From the NCBI GenBank assembly GCA_012729455.1, contig JAAYDC010000014.1:100692-164691 (forward strand): DNA of 64,000 bases, written 5' to 3'. This DNA comes from Chloroflexota bacterium. Lineage in GTDB: Bacteria > Chloroflexota > Anaerolineae > UBA1429. A model generated the notes under the pieces. It ran no database searches. It worked only from the letters and a program-made list of their open reading frames with translations, and was not told the DNA's origin. The translations under genes and the position numbers were made by a program. Positions 2,912-43,941 of this stretch are shown piece by piece (position 1 is the stretch's first letter; every line of letters begins with the position of its first letter).

Positions 2912-2912
2912 C

Positions 2913-3458: not shown

Positions 3459-3622
3459 TCATGATCTTGAACAACATTGCCTCCGATAATCCCTATCATA
3501 CAGCAAAAAACGGGCAGCCAATGATTGCCTGTGTAAAAATTGGCTTACCCGTACTCGTACGCTACATACACAGGGCTCGCACCCCTATGCAATAAAACAT
3601 GAAAACGCAAGTCTCCTGACTC

Positions 3623-3660
3623 AGGATAGGGAGGTAAAACTATCTCCTGAGAACCTATCC
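3623..3660. other. Perfect 8-bp inverted repeat hairpin (aggatagg ... cctatcct) in the AT-richer leader upstream of hydC
   Basis: Read directly: aggatagggaggtaaaactatctcctgagaacctatcct. An adjacent GNRA-type hairpin (agcc gaaa ggct) lies ~40 nt away. Probably part of a structured 5' UTR or a Rho-independent terminator of an upstream gene. Confidence 0.3.
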
Positions 3661-4129
3661 TACCTTTTTATAGGCGGCTTACTCCTCAATGGAAGCCTTT
3701 CGGCTCACATCAGGTCTCCCTGATGCTTTGGCAGATCCTCACGTCTACAGCGCCGGTTACGTTGGGTTTTGCCAACTGAATGGCACACCCACCCCATCTT
3801 CGCACCTGCCTGGCCTTTCAGCAAGTACGAAAGGACCATATAGTTTTTTACACGGATAAATGTCTCTATCCGGGATTCCTGAAAAGGTAGAACCACCACC
3901 CTCCGGGTCTCGATTCTACAAGTCTCCAGCCATTTGTCAAGACTGTCAACATGATTTTAGCGCCGGAACGCTGCCCTCTTTCTGGAGAGCAAATTGTCTA
4001 AAGCCGTCCGCACAAAAGGGATAGATGAGAGGACGCGGTGTACGTTGCGCAAAGGACTCGCCAGCCGCCATGCGCGCATCCGCGCATACTGTCAGCACGG
4101 CGCCGTTGCGCGCCTTGCTCTCGCAGCGC

Positions 4130-5482
4130 TCAGTTTCCGTTGGCGACGCTGTCGGCACCGAGGATCAGGATCAGGTCGACATCCGAGGTCTCGCCGGCAA
4201 AGGTGCGCACATTTTCGGGAAAGACCCCATATTCCTGCACCAGGAATTCGAGGGTATAGGGCTTGTCGTTATAGACCACGATGGTGGTCTGAGGCTGGTC
4301 AAAATCCGAGACCGTATCATAGCGGATCACATTAAAGCCCCTTTCGCGCAGTGCCAAAGTTTGAGCCTCGCCCAGGGCATCCACTCCGCTGCCATTACGC
4401 AGCTCGATGCGGGCAGCCTCGGCAGCGATCTGGCTGCGCGTCGGGTCGGGGGTACTATCCAGAGGGGTCGAGTTGGGGAACAACTCCGTCACTAAAGCGT
4501 ACACCTTGTCCCAATCGGCCTGCTGCACCATTGCACCAGTCTGTGTGGTCACAGATCTGGTCATGGTTTCGTCGATCTGGGCGGTCCGCAGGTTGTCTTT
4601 GCTCAAGCTGCGTGCCATCTCGGCCAGTGCGATCATCTCACGCAGGTTCAGGTCGGTGACGATCGAATCGCCCGCCAGCTTGACCAGCCCCGGGATAGAC
4701 GAGAGCGGGATATTGAGCGAGAGCACCTTATCGCGGATCGCCATGATTACCTGCTGCTGACGCTCCATGCGGTTAAAATCGTTTGAATCATGCCGCGTAC
4801 GAGCATACTCGAGGGCACGTTTGCCATCCAGCTGCTGAATGCCCGGCTGGAACTCGACCGTATAGGTGCCATAGTTGTTATCAGGGTAGGCACTATCGTA
4901 AATATGGCGCGGCACATCGATCGTAATGCCGCCAATAGCATCCACCATCTTCTCAAAGCCGGTAAAGTTGATGCGCATGAAATAGTGCACTGGCACACCC
5001 AGGGCTTCCTGCACCGTCAGTTTGGCCAAAGCCGGCCCGCCGCCGGGGTAGTGGTAGAAATCGCCCAGGGAATGCGCGGCGTTGATGCGATTTTCGCCAT
5101 ACCCCGGTATCTTGACCCACAAATCGCGCGGGATCGACAAAAGCGACGCCTTGTTGGTGGAGGGGTCAATGGAAAAAAGCATCATCGTGTCCGAGCGCCA
5201 GGGACCTGCTTCGCCCTCACGCTGGTCGATGCCCAGCAGCAGTACATTGACGGGTTCTTTTTTGGCGACCACATCGGGCAGCTCGTGCGCGGGGGCGCGC
5301 CCTGGGATCGCGTTCGGGTCGTTGAGGATCGGGATAAGCGGCAGCGAGGTGTTCGCAACCACCGCCTTGACGGTCGAGAAGAACAGATAACCGCTATAGA
5401 TCGCGCCGGATAGCAAGACCACCATCATAAACGAAACCAGCGCTCGGCGCGCACTGTGCGCGAAACTGGATCTTGCTCCCAT
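4130..5482 (-). CDS. LytR-CpsA-Psr (LCP) family cell-envelope glycopolymer transferase with an N-terminal TM anchor and C-terminal LytR_C-like domain
   Basis: 450 aa. TM helix FMMVVLLSGAIYSGYLFF. LCP-core-like LLLGIDQRE...RSDTMMLFSIDP...SIPRDLWV...YARTRH. Confidence 0.85.
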   Translation of the reverse strand: MGARSSFAHSARRALVSFMMVVLLSGAIYSGYLFFSTVKAVVANTSLPLIPILNDPNAIPGRAPAHELPDVVAKKEPVNVLLLGIDQREGEAGPWRSDTMMLFSIDPSTNKASLLSIPRDLWVKIPGYGENRINAAHSLGDFYHYPGGGPALAKLTVQEALGVPVHYFMRINFTGFEKMVDAIGGITIDVPRHIYDSAYPDNNYGTYTVEFQPGIQQLDGKRALEYARTRHDSNDFNRMERQQQVIMAIRDKVLSLNIPLSSIPGLVKLAGDSIVTDLNLREMIALAEMARSLSKDNLRTAQIDETMTRSVTTQTGAMVQQADWDKVYALVTELFPNSTPLDSTPDPTRSQIAAEAARIELRNGSGVDALGEAQTLALRERGFNVIRYDTVSDFDQPQTTIVVYNDKPYTLEFLVQEYGVFPENVRTFAGETSDVDLILILGADSVANGN

Positions 5483-5615
5483 CTCTGCCCTTTATCATCC
5501 GTCTTTATCGACTAGTATAGCACACTGCCCGGCGCCTACCAACATTAGCAGTGATTGCAGAACCAGTCGCTATATTTTATACTGAAAATCTATCTGATTT
5601 GTTCCAAGGAACGCC

Positions 5616-7277
5616 GTGTTGCCTCAGGGATTGCTGCTGGCTGGCCGCTACCTGGTGATTGAGTGGGCTGGCCGTGACGGCCTAACCGAAGTCTACCGCG
5701 CCTGGGATTCGCTCCTGGGCACACCGGTGCGCCTTGAAGCACTGCCAGCGGCCCCCCAGGGGATTGCCCCCGCGCGTTGGGCGCAGCAACTAGCCTCCAT
5801 GCGCACCGAAGCCGAATTGGGCGCCCAGCTGCAGCATCGCGGGCTGGTGGAGGTTACGGGGCTCGTCCGTAGTGCCTCTGGTGATTATGTGCTAGTACGC
5901 AAAGACTATGCCGGCGCCAGCCTGGCCGACGAACTGCATTCAGGGCGTACCCTGCCGGCTATGCAGACGACCTCAGTCTTTCGCCAGGTCTGCAGCACAC
6001 TGCGGGCGATCTCAGCCACCGGCATGCTGAACGGCCGCCTGGAAGCCGGCAGCATCTGGCTGAGCGGTGAGCGTGTCCGCCTGACCAGCCTGGGCGCCAG
6101 CCTGCGGCCTGCCCCCGTACGGTCCGCCTCAGAACCATGGCCGGCGGGGCTCAACAGCGACCCAGCAGCCGAGGCCAGCCTCGTGCAGCAGATCGGCCGC
6201 CTGATGGTCGCCACGCTGACTGGCAATCCCTGCCACGGGCAACCTCTGGCGCTGCGGCCGCGCGCACTCAATAGCATCATCGAATGCGCCCTCGGGCAGC
6301 ACGGAAGGGCCTATCGCGGCTTGGCAGAGCTCGAGCATGACCTGTATGCGATGGAGAATGAGTCGCCGCGTGCCGAAGTCGCCATGCTGTGGCAGCGTGC
6401 CCCGGTTGCCGCGCGGATTGGGATCAGCGTCCTGCTGATCGTGCTCCTGCTGGGGGCTGGGCTGGTCCTCAGCCAAGGCTGGAACAGGCTGCACGCCTTG
6501 GATGCCGCGCCAGTGTCGGCCACCCCCACATATACTCTGGCCTGGCCGGTTGTGCACACCGACGCGCACGGCGATAAGGACACAGGAAGCTTGCCAGTTC
6601 GTGATGCACGCGACACCTATGAGCCCGACGAGGGACATGCGGCGCTGCTTCAGCCCGGCGTGCAGCAGGCGCATACCTTTTACCCGCAAGGGGATACCGA
6701 CTGGGTGATGTTCCCGGTCCAGCGCGGCTGGACCTATATGCTGCAGGCGATTAACCAGGGTGACGCGCAGATCCAGCTGGACGTGAACGATGGGGCGCAA
6801 AACTGGCAGGGAATCTCGCCCGCGGCGGGCCAAAACGCGCTGGTTACGCTGATACCCTCTCAGGATAGCACCGCCCTGGTAAAGGTCAGCGCTCTGGGCA
6901 CCTTTGGCGAGGGCAGTGCCTTTGTGCTTTACTTGACGGAATTTCCGCCCGATAGCGCGCCACCCGCCCCTGAGCCCACCCGTGAGATCGTTGCCCAGCC
7001 GACGCGCACCCCGCGCCCGGTGATGACTCCGCTGCCCACAGCACCGCGTGCCACTGCAGCGCCAGGGGTCACAAGCGCGCCGGCAACCACCCGTACAGCG
7101 CAGATCAGCGCAACCCCGAAGCCCTCGCTCACGCCTACCCGCACGCGCACACCGCGCCTGACGCGCAGTGCCACCCTCAGCCGCACGCCCACCATTACGC
7201 CAACCCCGACGCCCTCGCTCACGCCTACCTCTACCGATACGCCCGTGCCCAGCACGCGCGAATCGGTGGTGCCCTGA
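5616..7277 (+). CDS. Membrane pseudokinase. Has a degenerate Hanks-type Ser/Thr kinase-like N-domain, one TM helix, an extracytoplasmic domain and a Pro/Thr-rich tail
   Basis: GTG start. Kinase-like order: GRYLVIEWAGRDGLTEVYRA (degenerate Gly loop), VRLEAL where VAIK is expected (no catalytic Lys), no HRD Asp, SLG where DFG is expected. TM helix IGISVLLIVLLLGAGLVL. Tail TPTPTPSLTPTSTDTPVPSTR. Confidence 0.6.
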   Translation: MLPQGLLLAGRYLVIEWAGRDGLTEVYRAWDSLLGTPVRLEALPAAPQGIAPARWAQQLASMRTEAELGAQLQHRGLVEVTGLVRSASGDYVLVRKDYAGASLADELHSGRTLPAMQTTSVFRQVCSTLRAISATGMLNGRLEAGSIWLSGERVRLTSLGASLRPAPVRSASEPWPAGLNSDPAAEASLVQQIGRLMVATLTGNPCHGQPLALRPRALNSIIECALGQHGRAYRGLAELEHDLYAMENESPRAEVAMLWQRAPVAARIGISVLLIVLLLGAGLVLSQGWNRLHALDAAPVSATPTYTLAWPVVHTDAHGDKDTGSLPVRDARDTYEPDEGHAALLQPGVQQAHTFYPQGDTDWVMFPVQRGWTYMLQAINQGDAQIQLDVNDGAQNWQGISPAAGQNALVTLIPSQDSTALVKVSALGTFGEGSAFVLYLTEFPPDSAPPAPEPTREIVAQPTRTPRPVMTPLPTAPRATAAPGVTSAPATTRTAQISATPKPSLTPTRTRTPRLTRSATLSRTPTITPTPTPSLTPTSTDTPVPSTRESVVP

Positions 7278-7278
7278 A

Positions 7279-7488
7279 TCAGGATTCGTCAGGCGGCAGT
7301 ACCTGCAGTTGGGTAACCTTTAGTTCAGCCTTATCGAGCTCAGCCTCGCAATACTGTGAAATCCGAATGCCTTCTTCGTAGAGTGCCAGCATCTCTTCCA
7401 GAGGGTGCTGACTGCTATCCAGGGCTTGAACAATACTTTCCAGCCGGCGGTAACCCGCCTCAAAGCTCTCAATCTGCTTCTTTTTCAT
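7279..7488 (-). CDS. xseB: Exodeoxyribonuclease VII small subunit
   Basis: 69 aa MKKKQIESFEAGYRRLESIVQALDSSQHPLEEMLALYEEGIRISQYCEAELDKAELKVTQLQVLPPDES. Stop of xseA is 1 nt upstream. The rest of the 239-aa track ORF is antisense junk. Confidence 0.8.
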   Translation of the reverse strand: MKKKQIESFEAGYRRLESIVQALDSSQHPLEEMLALYEEGIRISQYCEAELDKAELKVTQLQVLPPDES

Positions 7489-7489
7489 A

Positions 7490-8698
7490 TCAGGGCTCCT
7501 TAGGCTCTGTGCGGGTAACACTCGCTTGGGCGGTGCCATCAGCCAGGCGTAAGGTGATAGCCTCCGGCGGGACCAGCTGGCTGATGCTGGTAACCAGCGC
7601 CTGCGATTCGCCTTTGTAGACCAGTGCATAGCCGCGCTCGAGGACGTGCTGTACATCCAGAGAACGCAGCTGCTGGATGCTGACCTGCAGGCGCTGGCGT
7701 TGGAGCGCCAGGTAGTTGGCCATGGAGGCCTCGGCGCGTTGGCGCAACATATCGACTTGCTGGCGCTGTTCCTGCATCCGCCGCAGCGGATTGTGCACCG
7801 CCAGGGCACGCTGCTCGCGCCTGACGAGCTCGCGCCAGCCAGCCAGGTTGCGGGTGACCATCTCGTCCAGCATGCCGCGTAATTGCTCCAGACGCCCGCT
7901 GATTTGTACCAGGTCAGGTACGGCTGCCACAGCCGCTGCGGTGGGCGTGGGGGCGCGATAGTCAGCTGCATAGTCGATGATCGTGAAATCGGTATCATGC
8001 CCGACTCCCGAAATAACCGGCGTGGGCGAGTTGGCTACAGCACGCACCACGGCTTCGTCGTTAAAAGCCCACAGGTCCTGCGGCGACCCGCCGCCACGTG
8101 CCACGATGATCACATCGCACAGGCCTGTGGCGTTCAGGGCGTTTAGTGCCGCCACGATAGCGGCTGGCGCCTCATCACCCTGCACGGCGCTGTGCGCCAG
8201 GATCACCTCGACCAGCGGGTTGCGCTGCCGCAGCACATTGAGGATATCCTGCCAGGCTGCTCCCGATTCAGAGGTTACCACCCCGATGCGCCGCGGCCAG
8301 GCGGGCAGGGCGCGCTTGCGTTCCTCGGCAAAGAGCCCTTCAGCCTCGAGGCGCTCTTTGATCGCCATGAACTGCGCCCACAACCTCCCCAGACCGCCGT
8401 GCAGTAACTGATCAACGCGCAGCTGATAGTAGCCCCCGCCGAGATAGACGGTGATGCTGCCGTGGGCTTCGGCCAGGTCGCCGGGTTGCGGCGCCCAGGT
8501 CAGACGCGCCGCCTGCTGGCGCCAGATCACGCAGCGCAGCGATGAAGCCTGGTCTTTGAGGGTAAAGTAGATGTGTCCCGCGCTGGCACGCTTAAAATCG
8601 CTGATTTCTCCGGCGACCCACAGGTCCTCAAAGACACCTGAGCCCTCAAGCGCCTCTTTGATATAGCCGTTCAGCTGCTCGACAGTGAACATTTTCAT
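7490..8698 (-). CDS. xseA: Exodeoxyribonuclease VII large subunit
   Basis: OB-fold N-terminus (IYFTLKD, RCVIWR), then the catalytic domain (GVVTSESGAA, IIVARGGGS, ISGVGHDTDFT). Start chosen at MKMFTVEQL; the track ORF extends 19 codons further. Confidence 0.85.
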   Translation of the reverse strand: MKMFTVEQLNGYIKEALEGSGVFEDLWVAGEISDFKRASAGHIYFTLKDQASSLRCVIWRQQAARLTWAPQPGDLAEAHGSITVYLGGGYYQLRVDQLLHGGLGRLWAQFMAIKERLEAEGLFAEERKRALPAWPRRIGVVTSESGAAWQDILNVLRQRNPLVEVILAHSAVQGDEAPAAIVAALNALNATGLCDVIIVARGGGSPQDLWAFNDEAVVRAVANSPTPVISGVGHDTDFTIIDYAADYRAPTPTAAAVAAVPDLVQISGRLEQLRGMLDEMVTRNLAGWRELVRREQRALAVHNPLRRMQEQRQQVDMLRQRAEASMANYLALQRQRLQVSIQQLRSLDVQHVLERGYALVYKGESQALVTSISQLVPPEAITLRLADGTAQASVTRTEPKEP

Positions 8699-8769
8699 GG
8701 CACTATTATAGCACAGCCGCACCTGGCCCAACATAGTTGACACCTCCTCGGGCACGTGTTAAGATGAGC

Positions 8770-8789
8770 TTGTACGTACAACTGTACAG
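8770..8789. promoter_or_regulatory. Candidate GntR-family operator. A perfect 12-bp palindrome ttgtacgtacaa is immediately followed by the 8-bp palindrome ctgtacag, 9 nt upstream of the GntR start codon
   Basis: Read directly in the xseA/gntR divergent intergenic region. GT-N-AC palindromes are the known operator type for GntR/HutC regulators. Its position overlaps the RBS and leader, which suggests autoregulation of the downstream operon. Confidence 0.45.
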
Positions 8790-8797
8790 GTTGGCTG

Positions 8798-9550
8798 ATG
8801 ACCTTTCTCAGTGCTTTATCCGCCATCGATAAATCCAGCGCAGTGCCCTATTACTACCAGCTGGCCGAGATCCTGCGACGGCAACTGGATAGCCGCGCTT
8901 CACGCGGCGAGGTACTGCAGTTGCCTTCTGAAAACGAACTGTCCGAGCATTTTGTCCTCTCGCGCGCCACGGTGCGCCACGCGCTGGATATCCTCGAGAC
9001 CGAGGGCTGGATCTATCGCCAAAAGGGCAAGGGCGCCTTTGCGCCTTTCCGGCGCGTGCAGCATGAGCTCACACAGCTGGTCTCGACCACCGAAGACATG
9101 CAGCGGCGCGGCTGGCCGCTCGAGACGCGGCTGTTGAGTTGCGAGCTGCTGCCCTCTCCTGCCTATGCTGCCGATGCGCTCGAGATTGGCCAAGAGACGG
9201 CCATCTACCGCTTGGAGCGCCTGCGGCTGGTGGATGGCGAGCCGCTCAGCCTGCAGATTTCGCACCTGCCGGCCAGCTTGTGCCCGGGACTCGAACAGCA
9301 TGCCGAAGCCGGCTCGCTCTACCGCCTGTTGGAAGAGCGCTATGCACTAAAGCTGTGGAATGCCCAAGAAGTGCTGCGCGCACGCCCGGTTTCTCCGTAT
9401 GAGGCTGATCTGCTCGACGTGCGCGAAGGAGCTTGCACGCTCTATATAGAACGGGTAACGTATAACACAGAAGGAATCCCGGTCGAGTACCTGGAGTCTG
9501 TCTGGCGCGGCGACCGTTACGACTTTACCGTACATCTCACCCGCAGTTGA
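8798..9550 (+). CDS. GntR/HutC-family transcriptional regulator (winged HTH plus UTRA effector domain)
   Basis: 250 aa. HTH LPSENELSEHFVLSRATVRHALDILETEGWIYRQKGKGAF. C-terminal UTRA-like domain. Confidence 0.85.
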   Translation: MTFLSALSAIDKSSAVPYYYQLAEILRRQLDSRASRGEVLQLPSENELSEHFVLSRATVRHALDILETEGWIYRQKGKGAFAPFRRVQHELTQLVSTTEDMQRRGWPLETRLLSCELLPSPAYAADALEIGQETAIYRLERLRLVDGEPLSLQISHLPASLCPGLEQHAEAGSLYRLLEERYALKLWNAQEVLRARPVSPYEADLLDVREGACTLYIERVTYNTEGIPVEYLESVWRGDRYDFTVHLTRS

Positions 9551-9568
9551 GCGCCTGAAGGAGGAAAC

Positions 9569-10546
9569 ATGAAGTTTTCGGCCAACATCAACACCTTTAA
9601 TGCCTGTGCCGACCGCTATGTGCTGAGCGGATACGGCGAACGCCTCGATTCAGACGCGCTGATCCGAGCCGCTACCCAGGTGCCCGATCTGACGGGCGTA
9701 GAGCTGGTGGGCATGTGGCACGTCAATGACAACAATGTCGAGCAACTGCGCCGCCAACTGGCCGATGTTAACCTGGCGGTTACCTGCATCACACCCGATA
9801 TCTGGGCTTCCAGCAAGTGGGGCTGGGGGTCATTTACGTCGCCTGACCCAGCCATCCGCGCGGATGCCATCCGTGAGGTGCAAAAATCGATGGGCTGGGC
9901 CAAGCAGATGAACTGCGATATCGTCGATCTGTGGTTTGGGCAGGATGGCTACGACTATCCCATGCAGGGCGACTACCAGACCGCATGGGATCGGATCATC
10001 GAGGGCACCATCGCCTGCGCCGAATATATGCCGGATATCAATCTGGTGATCGAGTACAAGCCCAAGGAACCGCGCACGCACTGTTATATCTCCACGGTCG
10101 GCAAGACGCTCTTGCTGATCGACAAGGTCAACAAGCCCAACGTGGGCGCCATGATCGACGTCGGCCACACTCTCCAAGCCTACGAGGATGCCGCCGAATC
10201 GGCCGCGCTGCTGGATTACTTTGGTAAAAAGCTGATGTACATGCACTTTAACGATAACTGGCGCCTGTGGGATGACGACATGACCGCCGGTTCGGTGCAC
10301 ACCATCGAGCTGCTGGAACTGCTCTACTGGCTCGACCACATCGGTTATGACGGCTGGTATGCGCTCGACATCTTCCCTTACCGCGAGGATGGCATCCGCG
10401 CCGCCACTGAGAGCATCAAGTGGATCCAGGGCCTCTACGGGCTGCTCGACAAGATCGGGCGCGATAATATCACCTCTGCTATTGAGCAGGGTGATGCTAT
10501 GCAGGTATCCAGCCTGGTAAGAACCGCTTTACTGGGCAATTCATAA
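9569..10546 (+). CDS. Xylose-isomerase-like TIM-barrel sugar (phosphate) isomerase/epimerase
   Basis: 325 aa. GAAGGAGG RBS. TIM-barrel sugar isomerase signatures (EYKPKEP, DVGH, HFNDN). Confidence 0.8.
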   Translation: MKFSANINTFNACADRYVLSGYGERLDSDALIRAATQVPDLTGVELVGMWHVNDNNVEQLRRQLADVNLAVTCITPDIWASSKWGWGSFTSPDPAIRADAIREVQKSMGWAKQMNCDIVDLWFGQDGYDYPMQGDYQTAWDRIIEGTIACAEYMPDINLVIEYKPKEPRTHCYISTVGKTLLLIDKVNKPNVGAMIDVGHTLQAYEDAAESAALLDYFGKKLMYMHFNDNWRLWDDDMTAGSVHTIELLELLYWLDHIGYDGWYALDIFPYREDGIRAATESIKWIQGLYGLLDKIGRDNITSAIEQGDAMQVSSLVRTALLGNS

Positions 10547-10557
10547 ACGCTGGAGGA

Positions 10558-11913
10558 ATGATGACCAAGCAACTGTACGACCCGCATATGTTTAACTATA
10601 TGTGGGAAAGCCTCGACCGCGACCGTTTTGTAGTAGGCACCTACTATATCGAAGATACCCTGGAAGGGGTCGATTTTATCGACCACCTTATGCAGGTGCA
10701 GCGCCTGGCGCTAGAGGGCTCGACTGCCAGCTGGATGGAAGTAAAGGAAGAGACCCCTGAAGTGCGTGAACGCCTCTCGAGCAAGGTTCTGAACTATTTA
10801 GAGATCCCCGCGTCCAAGGGCACAAAAAAAGCCATTGTGCAGCTGGCCTTTCCCATCGCTGCCTGGGAAGAGAACGTCAACGTGCCGATGATGCTGCTCT
10901 CGATCATGGGCAACATCCCGGCATTTACCAACAAGATGCGTATGCTCGATCTGTATGTGCCGCCGACGGTAGCCGCTAAACTGGGCGGACCCAAGTTCGG
11001 CATCCCCGATCTGCGCGAAAAGCTGGGCGTCTACGACCGCCCGCTCATACTGCAGATCATCAAACCCAAGATGGGCATGTCGCCCCAGGAGACGGCCGAC
11101 CAGGTCTACCAGACCGCTCTGGGCGGGGCTGACCTGTGCAAAGACGACGAGATGTGCTCCGAGCTCTCCAACTCGCGTTTTGAAGACCGCCTCGAGGCCG
11201 TGTTAAAGGCACTCGACAAGGCCGAAAAAGAGACCGGTCACAAGACCCTCTACATGGTGAGCATCACCGACGAGGCCGACCGAGTGGTCGAAAAGGCACG
11301 CCGTGCGGTAAAGCTGGGCGCCACAGGCCTCCTGTATGCCTACTCGGCAGGGCTTTCGTCGCTTAAGACGATCGCCAACGACCCCGAGATCAATGTGCCG
11401 ATCCTGCTGCACGTCTCGCACATGATGGCGCTCTTGCCCTCGATGAACTTTCCGGTGCTTTCAAAGCTGTGCCGTATGTGCGGCGCCGACATGATGCTCA
11501 CGCCTTCGATCTGGTCGAGCATCCCGGTGGCCTCGGCCGAAGAGTGCGGCCGTGTGGCGCAGACCCTGCAGGCACCCTTTTATAATCTAAAGCCCACCTG
11601 GCCGATGCCCGCCGCGGGCATGTATCCCGGCCTGATCGACGTGCTGATCCAGGAAAACGGCTTAGACTTTATCGTTCCGGCGGGTGGTGGTATGCTGGGG
11701 CATCCGATGGGCTACAAGGCCGGGGCCATGGCCTGGCGCCAGGCAATCGACGCCGTCACCAAGGATGGCATCAGCCTGCAGGAAGCCGCTCGCAAATACA
11801 AGGAATTTGGCGCCGCCGCCGAGCTATGGGGCATTCGCACCCGCCCGGTGACGCCGTGGGGGTATTCCGGGCCGGATTACCACCCCAAGTTCGCGCCCAA
11901 GAACCTGGGTTGA
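10558..11913 (+). CDS. RuBisCO large-subunit-like protein (RLP, form IV-like)
   Basis: 451 aa. IKPKMGMS matches the IKPKLG motif (K175/K177 equivalents). GGADLCKDDE matches GGLDFTKDDE (carbamylated-Lys/Asp/Glu metal site). PAGGGMLGHPMG matches the GG phosphate-binding loop. No small-subunit gene nearby. Confidence 0.8.
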   Translation: MMTKQLYDPHMFNYMWESLDRDRFVVGTYYIEDTLEGVDFIDHLMQVQRLALEGSTASWMEVKEETPEVRERLSSKVLNYLEIPASKGTKKAIVQLAFPIAAWEENVNVPMMLLSIMGNIPAFTNKMRMLDLYVPPTVAAKLGGPKFGIPDLREKLGVYDRPLILQIIKPKMGMSPQETADQVYQTALGGADLCKDDEMCSELSNSRFEDRLEAVLKALDKAEKETGHKTLYMVSITDEADRVVEKARRAVKLGATGLLYAYSAGLSSLKTIANDPEINVPILLHVSHMMALLPSMNFPVLSKLCRMCGADMMLTPSIWSSIPVASAEECGRVAQTLQAPFYNLKPTWPMPAAGMYPGLIDVLIQENGLDFIVPAGGGMLGHPMGYKAGAMAWRQAIDAVTKDGISLQEAARKYKEFGAAAELWGIRTRPVTPWGYSGPDYHPKFAPKNLG

Positions 11914-11979
11914 TCGCGTTTTATAACTGGTGCGCCCGCCGTATTGGGGCGCACCAGCATGTTCGTTAAGGGAGCGTGT

Positions 11980-12948
11980 ATGTCAGAGTTTTCATTGCTG
12001 GATATGTACCGCAAAATGCTGCTGATCCGCCGCTTTGAGGAGCGCTGCAACGAGCTGTATATGCAGGGGCGCATCCCATCGACGCTGCACCTCTACATCG
12101 GCCAGGAGGCTGTGGCAGTGGGCGCCTGTGCGCCATTGACGGATGCCGACTATCTTTTTAGTACCCATCGTCCGCACGGCCACGCCCTGGCCAAGGGCGT
12201 CAGCCCACGCTCGATCATGGCAGAGCTCTTTGCCAAGGTCACAGGCTGCTGCAAGGGCAAGGGCGGCTCGATGCACGTCGGTGATATGCGCGTCGGCATG
12301 TTCCCGGCTGTGGCGATCGTGGGAGCCAACATCCCGCTGGCGGCTGGCGCTGCCCTGGCGGCCAAGCGCCTGAACGACGGACGCGTGACAGCCTGCTTTT
12401 TCGGCGACGGAGCCGCCAACGAAGGCGCCTTCCATGAAGGCTTGAATATGGCGGCGATCTGGAAGCTGCCTGTAGTATATTTCTGCGAAAACAACCTCTA
12501 CGCCGCTTCCACGCCTTTCAGCACGGCGTTCAACATCAAGCAGGTGGCCGACCGCGCTGCCAGCTATGGCATCCCCGGGATCGTGGTGGATGGCTATGAC
12601 GTCGAGAGTGTGGCTGAGGTAGCTGAGGAAGCCTACAATCGCGCGCGCCGCGGCGACGGCCCCACTCTGGTGGAATGCATGACCTACCGCCTGTGCGGGC
12701 ATTCGCGCAGCGACCCGCGCACCTACCGCACCAAGGAAGAAGAGGCCGAGTGGCAAGCGCGTGACGTGATCCCAACTACCGCCTCGCGGCTGCTTGATCG
12801 CGGCCTGGCTACGCAGGAGCGCATCGACCAGTTCGAAGCGGAAGTCAAAGCCGAGATCGACGACGCGGTGCAGTTTGCCGAAGAGAGTCCTTATCCCGAA
12901 CCGCACGAACTGATGGAAGATATCTTTGCGCCGGAGGCTGCCCTATGA
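11980..12948 (+). CDS. TPP-dependent 2-oxoacid/acetoin dehydrogenase E1 alpha subunit
   Basis: TPP motif GDGAANEG...NN. High similarity to the PdhA/AcoA family. Start chosen at MSEF after the AAGGGAG RBS. Confidence 0.85.
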   Translation: MSEFSLLDMYRKMLLIRRFEERCNELYMQGRIPSTLHLYIGQEAVAVGACAPLTDADYLFSTHRPHGHALAKGVSPRSIMAELFAKVTGCCKGKGGSMHVGDMRVGMFPAVAIVGANIPLAAGAALAAKRLNDGRVTACFFGDGAANEGAFHEGLNMAAIWKLPVVYFCENNLYAASTPFSTAFNIKQVADRAASYGIPGIVVDGYDVESVAEVAEEAYNRARRGDGPTLVECMTYRLCGHSRSDPRTYRTKEEEAEWQARDVIPTTASRLLDRGLATQERIDQFEAEVKAEIDDAVQFAEESPYPEPHELMEDIFAPEAAL

Positions 12949-13958
12949 GCCAGATGAGTATTGCCCAAGCCCTGCGCCAGGCGATCCGCGAAGAGATGCT
13001 GCGCGACGAGCGCGTCTATTGCATCGGTGAGGATATCGGCGTCCCGGGCGGTTTTGGCGGCGCATTTACCGTCACGCTCGGGCTTTCGGACGAGTTCGGC
13101 CGCGAGCGCATCCTGGATACCCCCATTTCCGAGATCGGCCTGGCGGGCGTGGCGATCGGTTCGGCTTGTGCCGGCATGCGCCCGATCGCTGACGTGCAGT
13201 ATGGCGACTTTTTGTTCTGTATGATGGACCAGCTGGCCAACCAGGCGGCCAAGATGCGCTACATGTCGGGCGGCACGATCAAGGTACCGATGGTGATGCG
13301 CGCACCGGTGGGCTCGACAAGCCGCGGCGCTCAGCACGCCCAGAGCCTAGAGGCGTTTTTCACGCACATCCCTGGGTTAAAGGTCGTGGCGCCCGCCACC
13401 GCCTACGACGCCAAGGGACTGCTCAAGGCTGCCGTGCGCGATGATAACCCCGTGATCGTCTTTGAGCACAAGCTGCTGTATGGCAGCAAGGGTCCGCGTT
13501 CCGAGCGCGGCGCGCTCAGCCCGATCGGCGAGGTGCCGGATGACGACTATATCGTGCCGATTGGCAAGGGCATCATCCGCCGCAAGGGCAAAGATGTCAC
13601 CATCGTCGGCAAGCTGTTGACGCTTTACCGCGCCCTGGGAGCCGCCGATGAGCTTGCCAAAGAAGGCATCGAGGCCGAGGTGATCGACCCGCGCACCCTT
13701 GTTCCGCTGGATAAAGACCTGATCCTCGAATCGGTGCGCAAGACCGGCCGGCTGGTGATCGTCGAGGAAGATAACCTCACCGGCGGATGGGCCGGCGATA
13801 TTGCCGCCATCGTGGCCGAAGAGGCTTTCTACTGGCTGGACACGCCCATCAAACGCCTCTCGGCACCAGATGCGCCCGCGCCCTTTGCGCCAGTGCTCGA
13901 ACAGCTGTATGTTCCCAGCGTCGCAAACGTCGTGCAGGCCGTCAAGAGCCTCTTTTAG
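12945..13958 (+). CDS. 2-oxoacid/acetoin dehydrogenase E1 beta subunit (transketolase-like)
   Basis: 337 aa. PdhB/AcoB-like throughout. ATGA overlap with E1 alpha. Confidence 0.9.
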   Translation: MSQMSIAQALRQAIREEMLRDERVYCIGEDIGVPGGFGGAFTVTLGLSDEFGRERILDTPISEIGLAGVAIGSACAGMRPIADVQYGDFLFCMMDQLANQAAKMRYMSGGTIKVPMVMRAPVGSTSRGAQHAQSLEAFFTHIPGLKVVAPATAYDAKGLLKAAVRDDNPVIVFEHKLLYGSKGPRSERGALSPIGEVPDDDYIVPIGKGIIRRKGKDVTIVGKLLTLYRALGAADELAKEGIEAEVIDPRTLVPLDKDLILESVRKTGRLVIVEEDNLTGGWAGDIAAIVAEEAFYWLDTPIKRLSAPDAPAPFAPVLEQLYVPSVANVVQAVKSLF

Positions 13959-13969
13959 GGAGTGGTGAA

Positions 13970-15019
13970 ATGCCCAAGCAAGTGTTGGTGCCACCCCTCG
14001 GGACGACTGTCGATACCATCACGCTGGTCGAGTGGCTCAAACAGCCCGGCGAAGCCGTAACGCACGGCGAGCCGTTATTTGTGATCGAGACCGACAAGGC
14101 TAACCTGGATGTCGAGGCGCCCGCCACGGGCATTCTCACCCAGGTGAGCGCACAACCCGGTGACGAGTTGACCGCCCTGACGGTGATCGCGCTGATCGCC
14201 GAAGAGGGCGAGGCGCCGAAGACTCCTGCTCCTGCTACGGCATCCGCGCCCGCAGCCGAACCCGCGGAGGTTCAAGCCCCCGTTGCCAAGCCCGAACCGG
14301 CTGCCGCGGTATCTTCCAGTGCCCCAATCTGCCGTGAAAGGGTGTTCATTTCGCCGCGCGCCAGACGCCTGGCTGAGGCGCATAATGTGCCGATCGCAGG
14401 GCTGGTGGCAACCGGACCCGAGGGCGCCATCATCGAGCGGGATGTGCGCGCCTGGCTGGAGGCACATCCTGCGAGCATGCCGGCTGCGCCCGCTCAGACC
14501 GCTGTGTCAGCGCGTTATACGCTGCAGGCTGAGTTCGACCCGGCCGAATTGCTGGATTGGCAAGACGCCTTGCGTACCTCCAAGCGTCAACCCAGTATCC
14601 TGCAGGTGGTGTTGCTGACCGCCCTGAGAATGCTGGCGGCCGAACCGCTTAACGCGCCGGATGGCAGCGAACTGGGCCTGGCTATGGCTGAACTGAGCGA
14701 CACAGGCCTGCGCTACCGGCCGCTGCCGCTCGCGAGCGCCCTGAATATGGCAAGGCTGCAAAAAGTTTTAGAGACCGAGCCTCAGGAGGCATTTTCGCAG
14801 GGGATCGCCCTGCTGGATGCCGGCGCACTGGGGCTGGATGTGCTGACGCCGAGCGATGCGAGCGTGCCCATGATCAGCATCGGCCGCGTGCGGCGTGGGC
14901 GCCCCGCCTGGCTGAGCGTGAGTGCTGATCCGAGCGCGTTGAGTGCACTGCAGGCAGCCAGCTGGTTGGCACGGCTTGTCAACCTGCTGGATGATCCGCA
15001 GCAGGTATTAGCAATCTAA
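13970..15019 (+). CDS. E2-like lipoyl protein. Has a lipoyl domain, a peripheral-subunit-binding domain and a degenerate acyltransferase domain lacking the catalytic His
   Basis: Lipoyl motif IETDKANLDVEAP. PSBD RARRLAEAHNVPIAGLVATGPEGAIIERDV. Where E2 enzymes have ...SxDHRxxDGA the sequence reads LSVSADPSALSALQAAS, so His, Arg and Asp-Gly are lost. Start at ATG 13970 after the AGGGAGTGG RBS; the track ORF start at 13787 overlaps E1 beta and is rejected. Confidence 0.7.
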   Translation: MPKQVLVPPLGTTVDTITLVEWLKQPGEAVTHGEPLFVIETDKANLDVEAPATGILTQVSAQPGDELTALTVIALIAEEGEAPKTPAPATASAPAAEPAEVQAPVAKPEPAAAVSSSAPICRERVFISPRARRLAEAHNVPIAGLVATGPEGAIIERDVRAWLEAHPASMPAAPAQTAVSARYTLQAEFDPAELLDWQDALRTSKRQPSILQVVLLTALRMLAAEPLNAPDGSELGLAMAELSDTGLRYRPLPLASALNMARLQKVLETEPQEAFSQGIALLDAGALGLDVLTPSDASVPMISIGRVRRGRPAWLSVSADPSALSALQAASWLARLVNLLDDPQQVLAI

Positions 15020-15034
15020 CAAGGAGAAGGAATC

Positions 15035-16522
15035 ATGGCAGATTCACTGGCGATGCTGGCATTTGACCTGGGGGCCGAAAGCGGACGTGCAATCATTGGT
15101 ACGCTTGCCGACGACAAGCTTAACCTGCAGGAAGTGCACCGTTTTGCCAACCGGCCGATCTGCCTGCCGGATGGCCTGCACTGGGATAGCCTGCACCTTT
15201 TTGCCGAAATCCTGACGGGGTTGAGTAAAGCCGCCGCGGTCGAGGGAGTCGAGATTGCCTCGATCGGCCTGGATACCTGGGGGGTCGATTTTGCCCTGCT
15301 GGATAGCGCCGGCTCGCTTCTGGGGCTGCCCTTTCACTATCGGGATTCCCGAACCGACGGCATGCTCGAGGCTGCCTTTGCCAGGGTGCCGCGCGAAGAG
15401 ATCTTTGCCGTCACGGGCATCCAGTTCATGCAGATCAGCACGCTCTACCAGCTGCTGGCGATGGCCATAGCCGATTCGCCCGCGCTGCGCGTCGCCAGCC
15501 ATCTGCTGACGATCCCCGACCTGCTCAATTACTGGCTCTCGGGGGTGATGGTCAACGAGTTCACCAACGCCACCACCACGCAGTGCTATAACCCGATCAC
15601 CGGCACCTGGGCTAAAGAGATGCTCGAGCGCATGGGGATCCCCTCGCACATCTTTGGCAAGGTAGTGCAGCCAGGCACAGTCATTGGCAGCCTGCGTGCC
15701 GACCTGGCCGAAGCCGCCGGACTGGCACCCATGCCGATCATCGCGCCGGCCTGCCACGACACCGGTTCGGCCGTCGCCGCGGTACCCAGCGCCGAACAGA
15801 ACTTTGCCTGGATCAGTTCGGGCACCTGGTCGATCATGGGCGTGGAATGGCCGGAGGCGCTCGTCAACGAGCAAAGCCTAGCATTCAACATCACCAACGA
15901 GGGCGGCATCGACGGCACCTGGCGCGTCTCCAAGAACATCATGGGGCTGTGGCTGGTGCAGGAAGCTCGCCGCACCTGGGGCCAGGAAGACGGCGTCACT
16001 GCCAGCTATGACGAGCTGGCCAAACTGGCCGCCGCGGCCGAGCCCTTTACCTCTGTAATCGACGTAGACGACGACACCTTCCTGCCGCCCGGCGACATGC
16101 CCGCGCGCGTGCGTGCCTATTGCAAGCGCACCGGCCAGCATGTACCAGAAGATAAGAGCCAGGTGATGCGTTGCATCTATGAAGGATTGGCATTAAAGTA
16201 CCGCTGGGTGCTCGAGCACATCGAAAAGATGCTCGGAACCCGCTTTGATGCGATCAACATCGTAGGCGGCGGTACCCAAGCCGAGATCCTTTCACAGTTT
16301 ACCGCCGATTGCACCGGCCGCACGGTGGTAACAGGCCCCGTCGAGGCCACTGCCATAGGCAACCTGCTGATGCAGGCACGCGCCCTTGGCAGGCTTTCAT
16401 CCAAAGAAGAGATGCGCGCGATCGTGCGCAACTCGACCGAACTGAACACCTACCAGCCGCGCTCGGACGCGCGCTGGGATGCGGCTCTGGCCAAACTGAA
16501 TGAACTGATCGCCAAATGTTAA
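15035..16522 (+). CDS. FGGY-family sugar kinase, rhamnulokinase-like
   Basis: 495 aa. RhaB-like blocks DLGAESGR, GLDTWGVDFALLD, YRDSRT, NATTTQ, ITNEGG, KNIMGLWL, VEATAIGN. Confidence 0.85.
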   Translation: MADSLAMLAFDLGAESGRAIIGTLADDKLNLQEVHRFANRPICLPDGLHWDSLHLFAEILTGLSKAAAVEGVEIASIGLDTWGVDFALLDSAGSLLGLPFHYRDSRTDGMLEAAFARVPREEIFAVTGIQFMQISTLYQLLAMAIADSPALRVASHLLTIPDLLNYWLSGVMVNEFTNATTTQCYNPITGTWAKEMLERMGIPSHIFGKVVQPGTVIGSLRADLAEAAGLAPMPIIAPACHDTGSAVAAVPSAEQNFAWISSGTWSIMGVEWPEALVNEQSLAFNITNEGGIDGTWRVSKNIMGLWLVQEARRTWGQEDGVTASYDELAKLAAAAEPFTSVIDVDDDTFLPPGDMPARVRAYCKRTGQHVPEDKSQVMRCIYEGLALKYRWVLEHIEKMLGTRFDAINIVGGGTQAEILSQFTADCTGRTVVTGPVEATAIGNLLMQARALGRLSSKEEMRAIVRNSTELNTYQPRSDARWDAALAKLNELIAKC

Positions 16523-17155
16523 CACCTGCAGGAGGCTACCTAGCAGTTAATCTGCGCAATTACGTGTTTCCGGATCATCTGCAGCCAAAGCATTCGGCCT
16601 TTTTAGGCTCTGTGGCACGCTGCTTTATGCCGCTGCCCGGTGGTGATGCCCCGCTGTGAACCGAGATTTTACCGGGGATCGAGATCACACGCATCACCGA
16701 TATAGCGCTGAAATCGACGTGTGTGCAGCCTAAAGAAATTCAGCAGCTTTAAAAATCGGACGCATGATCGGTACTTTGGTCGCCGTCATACAGGTGACCG
16801 TCTGGAGGGTATGCACTTTAGCGGTGCAAGAGCTCACCCGTACAACTGCCACGGCTGGGCTCCCAACGTGTGGCGGAGCGAGTGTGACGTACAACGGCGT
16901 GTAACCGGAACCGTGGTTGGCACGATGTATCATCCAAGCTTTGATGACCGCAAACTGCTTGTAGCGGCCAGGTGCAGCTTGCAGGGCGCGCTCCGGGGCT
17001 GATCATGCCATCGCCGTCGACCCGGTACAGCCCAGCGTGGGCGATGTGGTGCTGGGGCTCGATGAGAACGGCAGTGCCTGCACACTCACGGATATCGAAC
17101 CCGGCGGGGCGGTGCGCCCCGTTATAATTGGAATTGCGGACGAGGTGCAACTGAC

Positions 17156-17899
17156 ATGAGCTACATCTGTTCGGAGAAAGAGACTGCCCTGCGTGAGCAG
17201 ATCGTGCGCGTGGGCAAGCTGATGTATGGCCACGGCCTGATCGTGGGTGTCGACGGCAACATCTCGGCACGCCTCAGCAAAGACCGCATCCTGGTCACGC
17301 CCTCGGGCTTGTGCAAGGGGTTGATGAGTGTCGAACAGGTAATCGTGGTGGACCTAGAGGGCCGCAAAGTTGACAGCACCTCAGAAGCTAACCCCAATCT
17401 GCGCCCCACCAGCGAGACGCGCATGCACCTGGAAGTCTACCGCCAGCGCGACGATGTGGGCGGGGTGGTGCACGCCCATCCGGCTACCGCCATCGCGCTG
17501 AGTATCGCCGGTATTCCTCTGGCCGACCGCATGGTCCCCGAGGCGATTGTCAACCTCGGCCTGGTGCCCACCACCGAATATGCCACCCCCGCCAGCGAAG
17601 AAAACGTATACGCCATCCGCGGGCTGATCTCGGGACACGACGGCATCATCCTGCGCCGTCACGGCACACTCACAGTGGGCAAGGATCCCTGGCAGGCCTT
17701 TGTGCGCACCGAATTCCTCGCGCAGGTGGCGCGCATCACCCTGATACTGCACCAGCTTGGCGCGGGCGAACCGATCCCGGCCGAAGAGGTGCGCAAGCTG
17801 CTGGCACAGCGCAAGGCTTTTGGCTTTATGCGTCCTGGCGAGCTGAAAGAGTTCGCCGATATCTATGGCACCAGCTTTGACGATCAGGCTGGCAAGTAA
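17156..17899 (+). CDS. Class II aldolase/adducin-family protein (fuculose/rhamnulose-1-phosphate aldolase or related epimerase/decarboxylase)
   Basis: 247 aa. GNISAR, TPSG, HLEVY, VVHAHP motifs typical of the FucA/AraD/MtnB class II family. Confidence 0.85.
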   Translation: MSYICSEKETALREQIVRVGKLMYGHGLIVGVDGNISARLSKDRILVTPSGLCKGLMSVEQVIVVDLEGRKVDSTSEANPNLRPTSETRMHLEVYRQRDDVGGVVHAHPATAIALSIAGIPLADRMVPEAIVNLGLVPTTEYATPASEENVYAIRGLISGHDGIILRRHGTLTVGKDPWQAFVRTEFLAQVARITLILHQLGAGEPIPAEEVRKLLAQRKAFGFMRPGELKEFADIYGTSFDDQAGK

Positions 17900-17994
17900 C
17901 AGCCGGCTGAGCCCGAAACATTCGATGAGCAAGCCCCAGTGACCGCCATCACCGAGCAGATGATGTAACAGTCAAGTGGCGATAGGAGGATAAC

Positions 17995-18759
17995 ATGATC
18001 CTTGATATGTTCAGCTTGCAGGATAAAGTAGCCCTCGTGACGGGCGCCAGCCGCGGCTTGGGGCAGGGCATCGCTCTGGGTTTGGCGGAGGCCGGCGCCG
18101 ATATCGCCGGCGTGTCGCGCGGCAGCACCGCCGAGACCAAAGTGCAGGTCACTGCCCTGGGGCGGCGCTACCTGGCGCTAAAGTGCGACCTCAGCCAGGC
18201 CAGTGTGGCAGAGCTGTATGACCTGGTCGAGCAGACGGTTTCCGCGTTGGGGCATATCGATATCCTAGTGAATGCCGCCGGCATTAACCATCGCACCGCC
18301 TCGCTCGAGTTCGCCGAAGAGGATTGGGACCGCGTTTTACAGGTCAACTTGAAGAGCGCCATGTACCTCTCGCAAGCAGCCGCGCGCCGTTTTGCCGAAC
18401 AGGGCAAGGGCAAGATCATCAGTGTAGCATCGGCGATGAGCTTTCAGGGCGGGTACATCATCCCGGCCTACACAGCGGCCAAGCACGGCATTCTGGGAAT
18501 GACAAAGGCACTCGGTAACGAGTTTGCATCGCTGGGGATCAATGTCAACGCTATCGCCCCGGGTTATATGGACACCGACATGACCGCTGCGCTGATTGCC
18601 GACCCCAACCGCGGCCCTGCCATCAGCCAGCGCATCCCCGCTGGCCGCTGGGGCACCCCGCAAGACCTGCAGGGCGCGGCCGTGTTTCTAGCGTCAGCTG
18701 CCTCGGATTATTGCCACGGGAGCGTGGTGGTGGTGGATGGCGGTTGGCTGAACCGCTAG
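17995..18759 (+). CDS. SDR-family oxidoreductase (KduD / 2-deoxy-D-gluconate 3-dehydrogenase-like)
   Basis: 254 aa. TGASRGLG cofactor loop. YTAAK catalytic motif. AGGAGG RBS. Confidence 0.85.
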   Translation: MILDMFSLQDKVALVTGASRGLGQGIALGLAEAGADIAGVSRGSTAETKVQVTALGRRYLALKCDLSQASVAELYDLVEQTVSALGHIDILVNAAGINHRTASLEFAEEDWDRVLQVNLKSAMYLSQAAARRFAEQGKGKIISVASAMSFQGGYIIPAYTAAKHGILGMTKALGNEFASLGINVNAIAPGYMDTDMTAALIADPNRGPAISQRIPAGRWGTPQDLQGAAVFLASAASDYCHGSVVVVDGGWLNR

Positions 18760-20777: not shown

Positions 20778-20985
20778 AGCGTGAAAAGGGGCTTGTCATA
20801 TTAGAACATACGTTCCATAAGAGGATTACTATAGCACTCTTTGCAGGTATCTTGGCCGCCATTGCCTTCGCCGCCTGGGCTGATCGCCGCGCCTGGCCCA
20901 AACCGCGCGATACCCGCCCGCTCGTGCGCGTCCCGCAAGCCGCTGTCATCCTGCTGCTGAACGCGCCGCGGCGCCCTGGCCGGCG

Positions 20986-25575: not shown

Positions 25576-25634
25576 CGCATACTCCGCCATTGGAATAGGT
25601 ATTATAACCGGCATCCCGGCTTCGAACAATGCGT

Positions 25635-43939: not shown

Positions 43940-43941
43940 TA

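Follow-up and report, generated by a model that had tools for sequence, protein, structure and literature searches.

A RuBisCO-like protein of a distinct form IV clade is encoded with pyruvate dehydrogenase-type E1 genes in a candidate sugar-catabolic operon of a Chloroflexota bacterium

Most RuBisCO-like proteins (RLPs, form IV) are still without an assigned function (PMC7325909). One of them is encoded in a 64,000-nucleotide stretch of a Chloroflexota genome assembly (GCA_012729455.1, contig JAAYDC010000014.1, forward-strand positions 100,692 to 164,691; hereafter the window), where it lies between a putative sugar isomerase gene and the genes of a thiamine pyrophosphate (TPP)-dependent E1 enzyme, and the locus raises the question of what a RuBisCO homologue does in such company. 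To our knowledge, reactions have been assigned to only a few RLPs, namely the MtnW enolase, an isomerase of Rhodospirillum rubrum, OiaC/OiaX and an oxygenase of the hamamelose pathway. Each of these assignments altered views on the evolution of RuBisCO chemistry. The original prediction, read from the DNA letters, held that the RLP of the window is a competent enolising enzyme for a phosphorylated ketose or keto-acid and not a degenerate relic. Here we describe its active site, its placement and its strongly conserved gene partners, and tentatively propose a role in the breakdown of a deoxy-sugar.

Active site and placement of the RLP

The 450-residue form of the protein, starting at the second methionine, is 100% identical to a 'hypothetical protein' deposited from a Chloroflexi metagenome-assembled genome (P0001). 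Pfam matches (RuBisCO_large, 7e-45; RuBisCO_large_N, 1e-12; PF02788 and PF00016 both above their gathering scores) and a fold model agree in giving it an N-terminal alpha/beta domain and a C-terminal TIM barrel homologous to RbcL. We aligned the RLP with spinach RbcL (reference sequence 100% identical to PDB 1ir1/8ruc), two MtnW proteins and 108 homologues using MAFFT (n=112). In this alignment, the motifs IIKPKMGMS (residues 167-175) and GGADLCKDDE (189-198) fall into the true active-site columns with no offset, K169, K171, K195, D197 and E198 corresponding to K175, K177, K201, D203 and E204 of the spinach enzyme, and G376/G377(/G378) to G403/G404(/405). The metal-site triad, the two KPK lysines and the GGG loop were thus correctly recognized from the letters, and the offset of motifs that had been named beforehand as the finding to look for did not appear. 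Also kept are E53 (E60), W59 (W66), N119 (N123), H285 (H294) and G354 (G381), with S58 standing for T65. Seven of the 20 RuBisCO positions are altered (T173I, R295V, H298M, H327L, K334S, S379A and G380A in spinach numbering); the complete catalytic and ribulose bisphosphate-binding set of RuBisCO is therefore not present, as loop-6 K334, H327, R295 and H298 are all replaced, a loss on which the original prediction was silent. Judged by these residues, the RLP retains its metal/carbamate site, its proton-shuttling lysines and its P1 phosphate site, with K195 predicted to be carbamylatable and to form an Mg site with D197 and E198, but it has lost the second phosphate site together with the lysine of loop 6 that CO2 addition requires; these two losses imply a monophosphate substrate and no carboxylation.

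A word-based search without motif selection gave 121 members of the RLP family, down to 69% identity, in which 16 of the 20 mapped positions were invariant, every retained catalytic residue and the K195/D197/E198 metal ligands among them. The family-specific residues S287, H288, W319 and E17 were invariant as well, and W434, H442 and K448 of the C-terminal tail were nearly so. Two further regions are conserved in the clade, an N-terminal extension (residues 1-20, with D8, P9, M11, F12, W16, E17 and S18) and a C-terminal one (residues 427-451, with W434, H442, P443 and K448); MtnW has neither, model confidence is low in both, and they may serve in active-site closure or in contact with E1. Because the retained residues are invariant in all 121 members, the site appears to be a conserved working one, and conservation this far beyond chance argues for purifying selection on it. 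We therefore find it hardly credible that the RLP has decayed into a relic without catalysis or plays a structural part: the seven altered canonical positions, K334 included, would suit that explanation, but the invariant triad, the retained catalytic and family-specific residues, the near-invariant tail and the tight operon coupling described below all speak against it. The site instead fits enolisation of a monophosphorylated ketose, in keeping with the competence that was originally predicted.

An AlphaFold model of the RLP (pTM 0.81, pLDDT 77.5) matched the Chlorobium tepidum RLP, MtnW enolases and form III RuBisCOs about equally well in Foldseek (TM ~0.8, 29-32% identity); no solved structure found by Foldseek was more than 32% identical to it, and none belongs to its clade. 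Its best curated matches were the NCBIfam models of MtnW, all below cut-off (NF007095, 274.5 versus 409; TIGR03332, 229.9 versus 513.6), and the scores against TIGR03326 (form III; 217 versus 497), NF003252 (218 versus 438) and NF042437 (OiaX; 132.9 versus 700) were likewise too low. A neighbour-joining tree of the 112 sequences nested the RLP family within a larger uncharacterised group, itself sister to the MtnW/YkrW clade, and the residues at spinach positions 60/123/175/177/201/294/295/327/334 read E-N-K-K-K-H-V-L-S in the RLP family and G-K-K-V-K-H-P-L-S in the MtnW/YkrW clade. The RLP of the window carries the signature of its clade in full (E60, N123, K175, K177, KDDE and H294, with K334 replaced by S, H327 by L and G380 by A). 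On scores, tree position and structural identity, the RLP is thus assigned to a distinct, uncharacterised form IV clade outside any clade of assigned function, and the original prediction was not overturned by membership of a known group.

The closest characterised relative is the 2,3-diketo-5-methylthiopentyl-1-phosphate (DK-MTP-1-P) enolase MtnW/YkrW of methionine salvage (B. subtilis 2zvi, G. kaustophilus 2oek, A. acidocaldarius 4nas; 2.4e-62, 31-36% identity, TM ~0.8). Both proteins have the carbamyl-Lys/Asp/Glu triad, K175, H294 and the P1 glycines, and both have lost R295, H298, H327 and K334, so that both should bind a monophosphate and enolise it without carboxylating. However, less of the catalytic set of RuBisCO survives in MtnW than in the clade described here: MtnW has K at N123, V or M at K177 and G at E60, where the RLP has N, K and E as in true RuBisCO. 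The Lys at N123 is found in MtnW of B. subtilis and G. kaustophilus and in all MtnW-clade representatives, and Asn stands there in the RLP and in all 121 family members; this Lys (Lys98 in G. kaustophilus) is said, from the work of Imker et al. in 2007, to be the catalytic base of MtnW. No mtn genes (mtnK/A/B/X/D context) lie among the neighbours of the RLP, as the original prediction had seen. Although the best NCBIfam and PDB sequence matches are to MtnW, and many family members bear the automatic JGI name 'DK-MTP-1-P enolase', the RLP lies far below both equivalog cut-offs, at low identity, in a separate clade and with E60, N123 and K177 retained. Orthology to MtnW is therefore effectively refuted on scores, signature residues, tree position and context; a methionine-salvage role is very improbable, and the JGI name is very probably wrong for this family.

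Compared with form III and form I RuBisCOs, the RLP has the same fold (TM ~0.8) and keeps E60, N123, K175, K177, K201, D203, E204, H294 and the P1 site, but lacks K334, H327, R295, H298 and T173. No phosphoribulokinase, AMP phosphorylase or small-subunit gene was found among its annotated neighbours, which agrees with the earlier reading that there is no Calvin-cycle context; for the small subunit, this holds for the genes adjoining the RLP (the isomerase and E1alpha genes), the small open reading frames (ORFs) of the window not all having been screened for RbcS. Sister RLPs at 37-43% identity (P0123, P0124, P0126-P0129 and relatives; for example, at loci L016-L023) keep K334 together with E60, N123, K175, K177, KDDE and H294, and P0126 also has R295, giving 17 of the 20 canonical positions; these proteins are more RuBisCO-like than the RLP of the window. 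Their contexts are heterogeneous, without E1, and gave no lead to function, and we know of no function assigned to any of these sister RLPs.

Conserved coupling of RLP and E1 genes

The partner that the original prediction did not mention is the TPP-lipoyl system encoded directly downstream of the RLP gene, E1alpha and E1beta with or without E2. To assess its conservation, module homologues were scored at 80 species-representative-genome loci, 6 contig look-up loci and 80 metagenome loci. Every locus with an RLP at least 50% identical and with usable flanks carried E1alpha and E1beta, usually together with E2, a RhaB-like kinase and the isomerase; 14 such loci from the genomes and look-ups belong to Chloroflexi, Omnitrophota, Planctomycetota and Victivallales, and two very short contigs (L011 and L012) showed the kinase or E2 only. 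By contrast, E1alpha/E1beta, the isomerase and strong kinase matches were missing from all 68 loci whose RLP was 40% identical or less; what these loci showed was limited to weak FGGY or lipoyl-domain matches (<65 bits) and a single E1 match of 36 bits. The RLP clade has more than 360 metagenome matches and spans at least four phyla.

Among the metagenome loci with at least 3 kb downstream, E1alpha and E1beta lie directly 3' of the RLP gene in 40 of 42, the E1alpha start being about 30-70 nt from the RLP stop codon. The two exceptions are the only long-flank metagenome loci without E1: in L140 the RLP gene is followed by IS21-type IstA/IstB genes, and the locus may have been disrupted by this element; the genes of L137 are arranged differently and relate to glycan degradation, a URO-D gene being accompanied by genes for an apiosidase-like enzyme of family GH140, an amidohydrolase and a dehydratase of the enolase superfamily. 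Of the 25 metagenome loci with at least 5 kb downstream, 19 have E2, and a GntR homologue adjoins the RLP gene in 30 of the 80 metagenome loci (in 9 of the 10 with long flanks). The xylose isomerase (XI)-like protein (330-615 bits) is conserved beside the RLP, and the kinase recurs in the module at 320-660 bits. RLP, E1alpha and E1beta thus form a near-invariant core around which the other genes shuffle. All-against-all clustering of the core loci returned only seven module genes and the antisense shadow ORFs typical of high-GC DNA.

Further genes accompany the module in some relatives. Sugar ABC transporters are among them; RhaA (4 loci), rhaM (a handful), alpha-L-fucosidase, DeoC, PfkB with fructose-bisphosphate aldolase, URO-D, Meth_synt_2, PTE and RpiR are each too sporadic to define the substrate. 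Two loci carry additional module genes. At L001, a second, fragmented copy (isomerase, lipoyl, E2 and E1 pieces and a 54-residue RuBisCO_large fragment) lies 5' of the intact RLP gene and is either a decaying duplicate or the product of frameshift errors in a long-read assembly. At L084, an extra set consisting of an XI-like isomerase, a split transketolase and E1alpha-beta stands upstream of the module, and RhaA (L-rhamnose isomerase) and a sugar ABC transporter stand downstream.

The corresponding genes in the window are listed in Table 1. They lie on one strand with gaps of 12-31 nt or with overlaps, and we interpret them as a seven-gene catabolic operon (GntR, XI-like isomerase, RLP, E1alpha, E1beta, lipoyl E2 and RhaB/FucK-like kinase) with the RLP at its centre. 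The E1alpha ORF opens with TTG at 11944, ATG at 11959 or 11980 being likelier starts. A promoter-like site just upstream of the GntR gene is a possible operon start, although only a suggestive one, as promoter-like sites in the region do not exceed the shuffled expectation.

Table 1. Positions of the genes and sites discussed in the text, in the window and in related loci
Sequence	Feature	Position	Strand	Remarks
Window	Promoter-like site, TTGACA-17-TAAGAT with TG extension	8737-8765	+	Best match in 8500-19000, 10/12; just 5' of GntR gene
Window	GntR/HutC-type regulator with UTRA effector domain	8798-9550	+	Pfam GntR and UTRA; 19 nt 5' of isomerase gene
Window	Short XI-like TIM-barrel sugar isomerase/epimerase	9569-10546	+	325 aa; Pfam AP_endonuc_2
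Window	RLP, form IV	10558-11913	+	Open ORF, 451 aa; clade without characterised member
Window	RLP N-terminal extension	10558-10620
Window	RLP C-terminal extension	11836-11910
Window	E1alpha, PDH/acetoin-dehydrogenase-type TPP enzyme	11944-12948	+	Pfam E1_dh, 1e-93
Window	E1beta	12945-13958	+	Pfam Transket_pyr and Transketolase_C; start overlaps E1alpha stop
Window	Lipoyl-carrier/E2-like protein	13970-15019	+	Pfam Biotin_lipoyl and E3_binding
Window	FGGY kinase, L-rhamnulose/L-fuculose 1-kinase type	15035-16522	+	TIGR02627 and PDB matches
Window	Class II aldolase-family gene	17156-17899	+	634-nt gap after operon; below all NCBIfam cut-offs
Window	Aldolase gene with neighbouring SDR gene	17156-18759	+
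Window	ORF with weak kinase-like match	5616-7277	+	553 aa
Window	Glycerol-utilisation cluster	21366-25629	-
Window	ORF without Pfam match	40799-44143	-	1114 aa
Window	2-oxoacid:ferredoxin oxidoreductase-like protein	47316-49115	-	TPP/4Fe-4S
Window	RACo-type reductive activator of corrinoid proteins	52698-54527	-
L001	Fragmented second module copy	3326-8019	-
L084	Extra upstream set	3294-8208
L084	RhaA and sugar ABC transporter	14806-21344
L140	IstA/IstB genes	7804-9880
L137	Glycan-degradation arrangement	11701-17876
L010	URO-D/MetE-like family genes	6698-7801, 15928-17031
L015	URO-D/MetE-like family genes	1348-2844, 2857-3942, 6903-8198
L001	URO-D/MetE-like family gene	2106-3314
L137	URO-D/MetE-like family gene	11701-12831
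L003	URO-D/MetE-like family gene	11399-12460		Meth_synt_2

Partner enzymes and a candidate pathway

E1alpha scored 389 bits against the pyruvate dehydrogenase (PDH) model TIGR03182 (cut-off 394) and had human PDH E1alpha as its best PDB match (227 bits); E1beta, which co-occurs with the RLP as E1alpha does, scored 355 bits against NF006667 of the PDH E1beta subfamily (cut-off 321). The E1alpha of the window contains the TPP motif GDG..NN and a YRLCGHS loop, and the TPP motif and a YR..GHS loop are present in 51 of 51 E1alpha orthologues. The E2 of the window has an intact lipoyl domain (..IETDKA..) and E3-binding domain, whereas its acyltransferase-like core is shortened: no Pfam 2-oxoacid_dh match was obtained even at E<=10, and in an alignment with the E2s of related loci it shows deletions and ADPSALSA in place of DHRxxDG. 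The E2s of relatives keep the lipoyl-Lys motif in 25 of 28 cases and the DHR..(D/N)G motif in 21 of 28, and some loci have no E2 in the cluster. In its heterotetramer-type E1alpha/beta, TPP motif, YR..GHS loop and lipoyl-E2, the module resembles the E1-E2 parts of acetoin dehydrogenase and PDH; in acetoin dehydrogenase, the TPP/lipoyl machinery is already known to cleave an acyloin instead of a 2-oxo acid. The module differs from both in standing in a sugar operon, in the coupling of E1 to an RLP, in an optional E2 with a degenerate core in the window, and in having no E3 gene in the cluster.

The scores at or near curated PDH cut-offs, the likeness to human PDH E1, the missing E3 and the loci without E2 would also be compatible with an ordinary PDH that merely shares the operon (pyruvate might, for example, be the end product of the pathway), the RLP being an independent sugar-phosphate isomerase or epimerase. 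We regard this as improbable, because RLP and E1alpha remain adjacent in 40 of 42 loci and in four phyla against a changing arrangement of the other genes, the isomerase and kinase genes enclose those of E1 in one operon, and a degenerate E2 core would be an unusual feature of a housekeeping PDH.

The kinase approached the rhamnulokinase model TIGR02627 (492 bits versus a cut-off of 528), with E. coli RhaB (340 bits) and S. pneumoniae FucK (322 bits) as its best PDB matches. The isomerase had only weak NCBIfam matches, to XylA/RhaI; in the PDB it came closest to a short 'xylose isomerase' that has not been characterised (3ktc, 209 bits), with class I xylose isomerases and the P. stutzeri L-rhamnose isomerase next in rank. 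Since the kinase is closest to RhaB/FucK, and since RhaA, rhaM, alpha-L-fucosidase and sugar ABC transporters stand beside the module in several loci, a 6-deoxyhexose is the suggested class of substrate. An enolising or isomerising role is suggested because MtnW and the R. rubrum RLP carry out such steps on ketose or diketone 1-phosphates.

We propose, with somewhat less than even confidence, that the RLP is a competent enzyme that enolises or isomerises a 6-deoxy-ketohexose 1-phosphate to an acyloin, which E1/E2 then cleaves oxidatively. In this scheme, a 6-deoxy-L-hexose of the L-rhamnose or L-fucose type would be converted to its 2-ketose and phosphorylated at C1 by the kinase, and the RLP would bind the monophosphate through its P1 site (G354, G376-378). 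Carbamylated K195, Mg2+ on D197/E198 and the residues K169, K171, H285, N119 and E53 would generate a metal-stabilised cis-enediolate, and re-protonation would shift the carbonyl along the chain, by analogy with the R. rubrum RLP and with no addition of CO2, giving an acyloin or methyl-ketone motif beside the deoxy end. The PDH/acetoin-dehydrogenase-type E1 with TPP would then cleave this product and pass the acyl group via lipoyl to an acyl-CoA, leaving a smaller aldose phosphate. Two outcomes can be envisaged: acetyl-CoA and a tetrose 4-phosphate, for which the carbonyl would have to travel three positions unless the XI-like isomerase contributes, or lactoyl-CoA and glyceraldehyde 3-phosphate, for which it would have to travel two. 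An acetyl unit is favoured by the PDH-like E1. With either outcome, the step of the rhamnulose/fuculose-1-phosphate aldolase would be bypassed and no free lactaldehyde would arise.

The best functional analogy is the R. rubrum RLP (5-methylthio-D-ribulose-1-phosphate 1,3-isomerase, 'DeepYkr'), which reportedly takes a ketose 1-phosphate with a non-polar far end through enediolates to an isomer with the carbonyl beside the deoxy or methylthio end; the product is an analogue of 1-deoxy-xylulose 5-phosphate (DXP), an acyloin of the type that TPP enzymes handle. Its partner is a cupin methylsulfurylase, whereas the RLP of the window is coupled to E1/E2. OiaC/OiaX of D-apionate catabolism likewise sit in sugar-catabolic operons with a dedicated kinase and demonstrate that an RLP can serve in carbohydrate degradation, but they decarboxylate or transcarboxylate a 3-oxo acid phosphate and are accompanied by DUF1537 kinases, where the RLP described here has an FGGY kinase and E1.

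The R. rubrum precedent for a two-position walk could also be applied to a 5-deoxy- or 5-methylthio-pentulose 1-phosphate derived from S-adenosylmethionine by-products. A 1,3-isomerisation would yield 1-deoxy- or 1-methylthio-xylulose 5-phosphate, whose CH3-CO-CHOH- motif suits a PDH-like E1, and E1/E2 would reverse the DXP-synthase half-reaction to give acetyl-CoA and glyceraldehyde 3-phosphate; the URO-D/Meth_synt_2-type genes that recur by the module could process the methylthio group. We consider this substrate unlikely, as the kinase is of the type that phosphorylates 6-deoxyhexuloses, the operon, with its isomerase and GntR and with RhaA, rhaM, fucosidase and ABC transporters in relatives, resembles a nutrient catabolic unit, no MtnK/MtnA/MtnP-type genes lie nearby, and URO-D genes are missing from the window and from most loci. 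The URO-D/MetE-like (methyltransferase-fold) genes were seen by the module in 12 of the 80 metagenome loci, sometimes in several copies; one possibility is that they demethylate O-methyl or methylthio sugars.

The altered loop-6 region bears on another proposal, in which the RLP enolises a ketose 1-phosphate and eliminates the C1 phosphate or the C4 hydroxyl to form a 2,3-diketone, E1 then cleaving the alpha-diketone hydrolytically or oxidatively. Such a diketone would resemble the MtnB product, and MtnW itself acts on a 2,3-diketone 1-phosphate; phosphate elimination is a known side reaction of RuBisCO, in which loss of K334 and of loop-6 closure favours elimination from the enediolate, and alpha-diketones can be cleaved by a TPP enzyme. 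However, the ATP invested by the kinase would be lost with the phosphate, retention of the P1 site suggests that the phosphate stays bound, and the neighbouring genes offer no evident way onward for the predicted products (a dideoxy-diulose, dihydroxybutyrate or phosphoglycolate). We accordingly give elimination a low probability.

Several points weigh against the proposed conversion of a 6-deoxy-ketohexose 1-phosphate to an acyloin. The proposal is built from sequence and gene context. Most loci have no rhamnose or fucose marker genes beside them (4 have RhaA, a handful rhaM), so that the identity of the sugar depends mainly on the kinase family. A PDH-like E1 best fits a methyl ketone (hydroxyethyl-TPP), which would need a three-position walk from C2 of the 6-deoxyhexulose or help from the isomerase, whereas the two-position walk, for which a precedent is known, would give a lactoyl or C4 acyl unit. 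In addition, several clusters are without E2, and the E2 of the window has a degenerate catalytic core.

Flanking genes and implications of the module

The original prediction placed the RLP in a sugar-kinase/aldolase context, of which the kinase part held and the aldolase part did not: beyond its distance from the operon, the class II aldolase-family gene has no counterpart in the 17 other core loci of the genome scan and contig look-ups, and was found in 1 of the 80 metagenome loci. This gene, the sole class II aldolase-family gene nearby, has L-ribulose-5-phosphate 4-epimerase, OtnC and FucA as its best matches and scored 77.8 against MtnB (cut-off 137). We considered it as an MtnB-like dehydratase feeding the RLP and rejected this because of the scores, the 634-nt gap and the lack of conservation. 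The neighbouring short-chain dehydrogenase/reductase (SDR) gene scores as KduD; a reading of the aldolase and SDR as a split RhaEW was rejected on that score, on the gap and because the pair is not conserved. The two genes probably form a separate unit of sugar-acid metabolism outside the RLP operon.

A glycerol-utilisation cluster elsewhere in the window includes an FGGY kinase whose glycerol-kinase-like domains are strong, an FAD dehydrogenase that resembles GlpA and carries a BFD [2Fe-2S] domain, and a pyridine-nucleotide-disulphide oxidoreductase. One long ORF gave no Pfam match, and another gave only a weak N-terminal Ser/Thr-kinase-like NCBIfam match. The RACo-type activator and the 2-oxoacid:ferredoxin oxidoreductase-like protein fit an anaerobic lifestyle and provide an alternative route of pyruvate oxidation.

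In the full-text literature, in which subscription papers are incompletely covered, we came across no account of this clade, nor of an RLP coupled with E1/E2 or with rhamnose/fucose genes. What is new here is a strongly conserved partner system for an uncharacterised RLP clade, and probably a new reaction. A more specific and rather doubtful possibility is that the RLP clade and its obligate E1alpha-beta/lipoyl partner constitute a previously unknown aldolase-free 'deoxy-sugar shunt' acting on L-rhamnulose- or L-fuculose-1-phosphate in anaerobic glycan degraders. The RLP would move the carbonyl in the direction of the methyl end, and the PDH-derived TPP/lipoyl system would split the sugar phosphate by oxidation, the products being an acyl-CoA and an aldose phosphate of central metabolism. 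Such a shunt would be the first known functional partnership between a RuBisCO homologue and a complex of the 2-oxoacid-dehydrogenase type, and a sugar phosphate would for the first time be known as a substrate of an E1 of this kind. If the proposed pathway is true, the substrate range of E1 enzymes would be widened by sugar phosphates. Anaerobic polysaccharide degraders would then possess a new rhamnose/fucose-type route that conserves a thioester and releases no toxic lactaldehyde, and the widespread automatic annotation of these proteins as DK-MTP-1-P enolase would be corrected.

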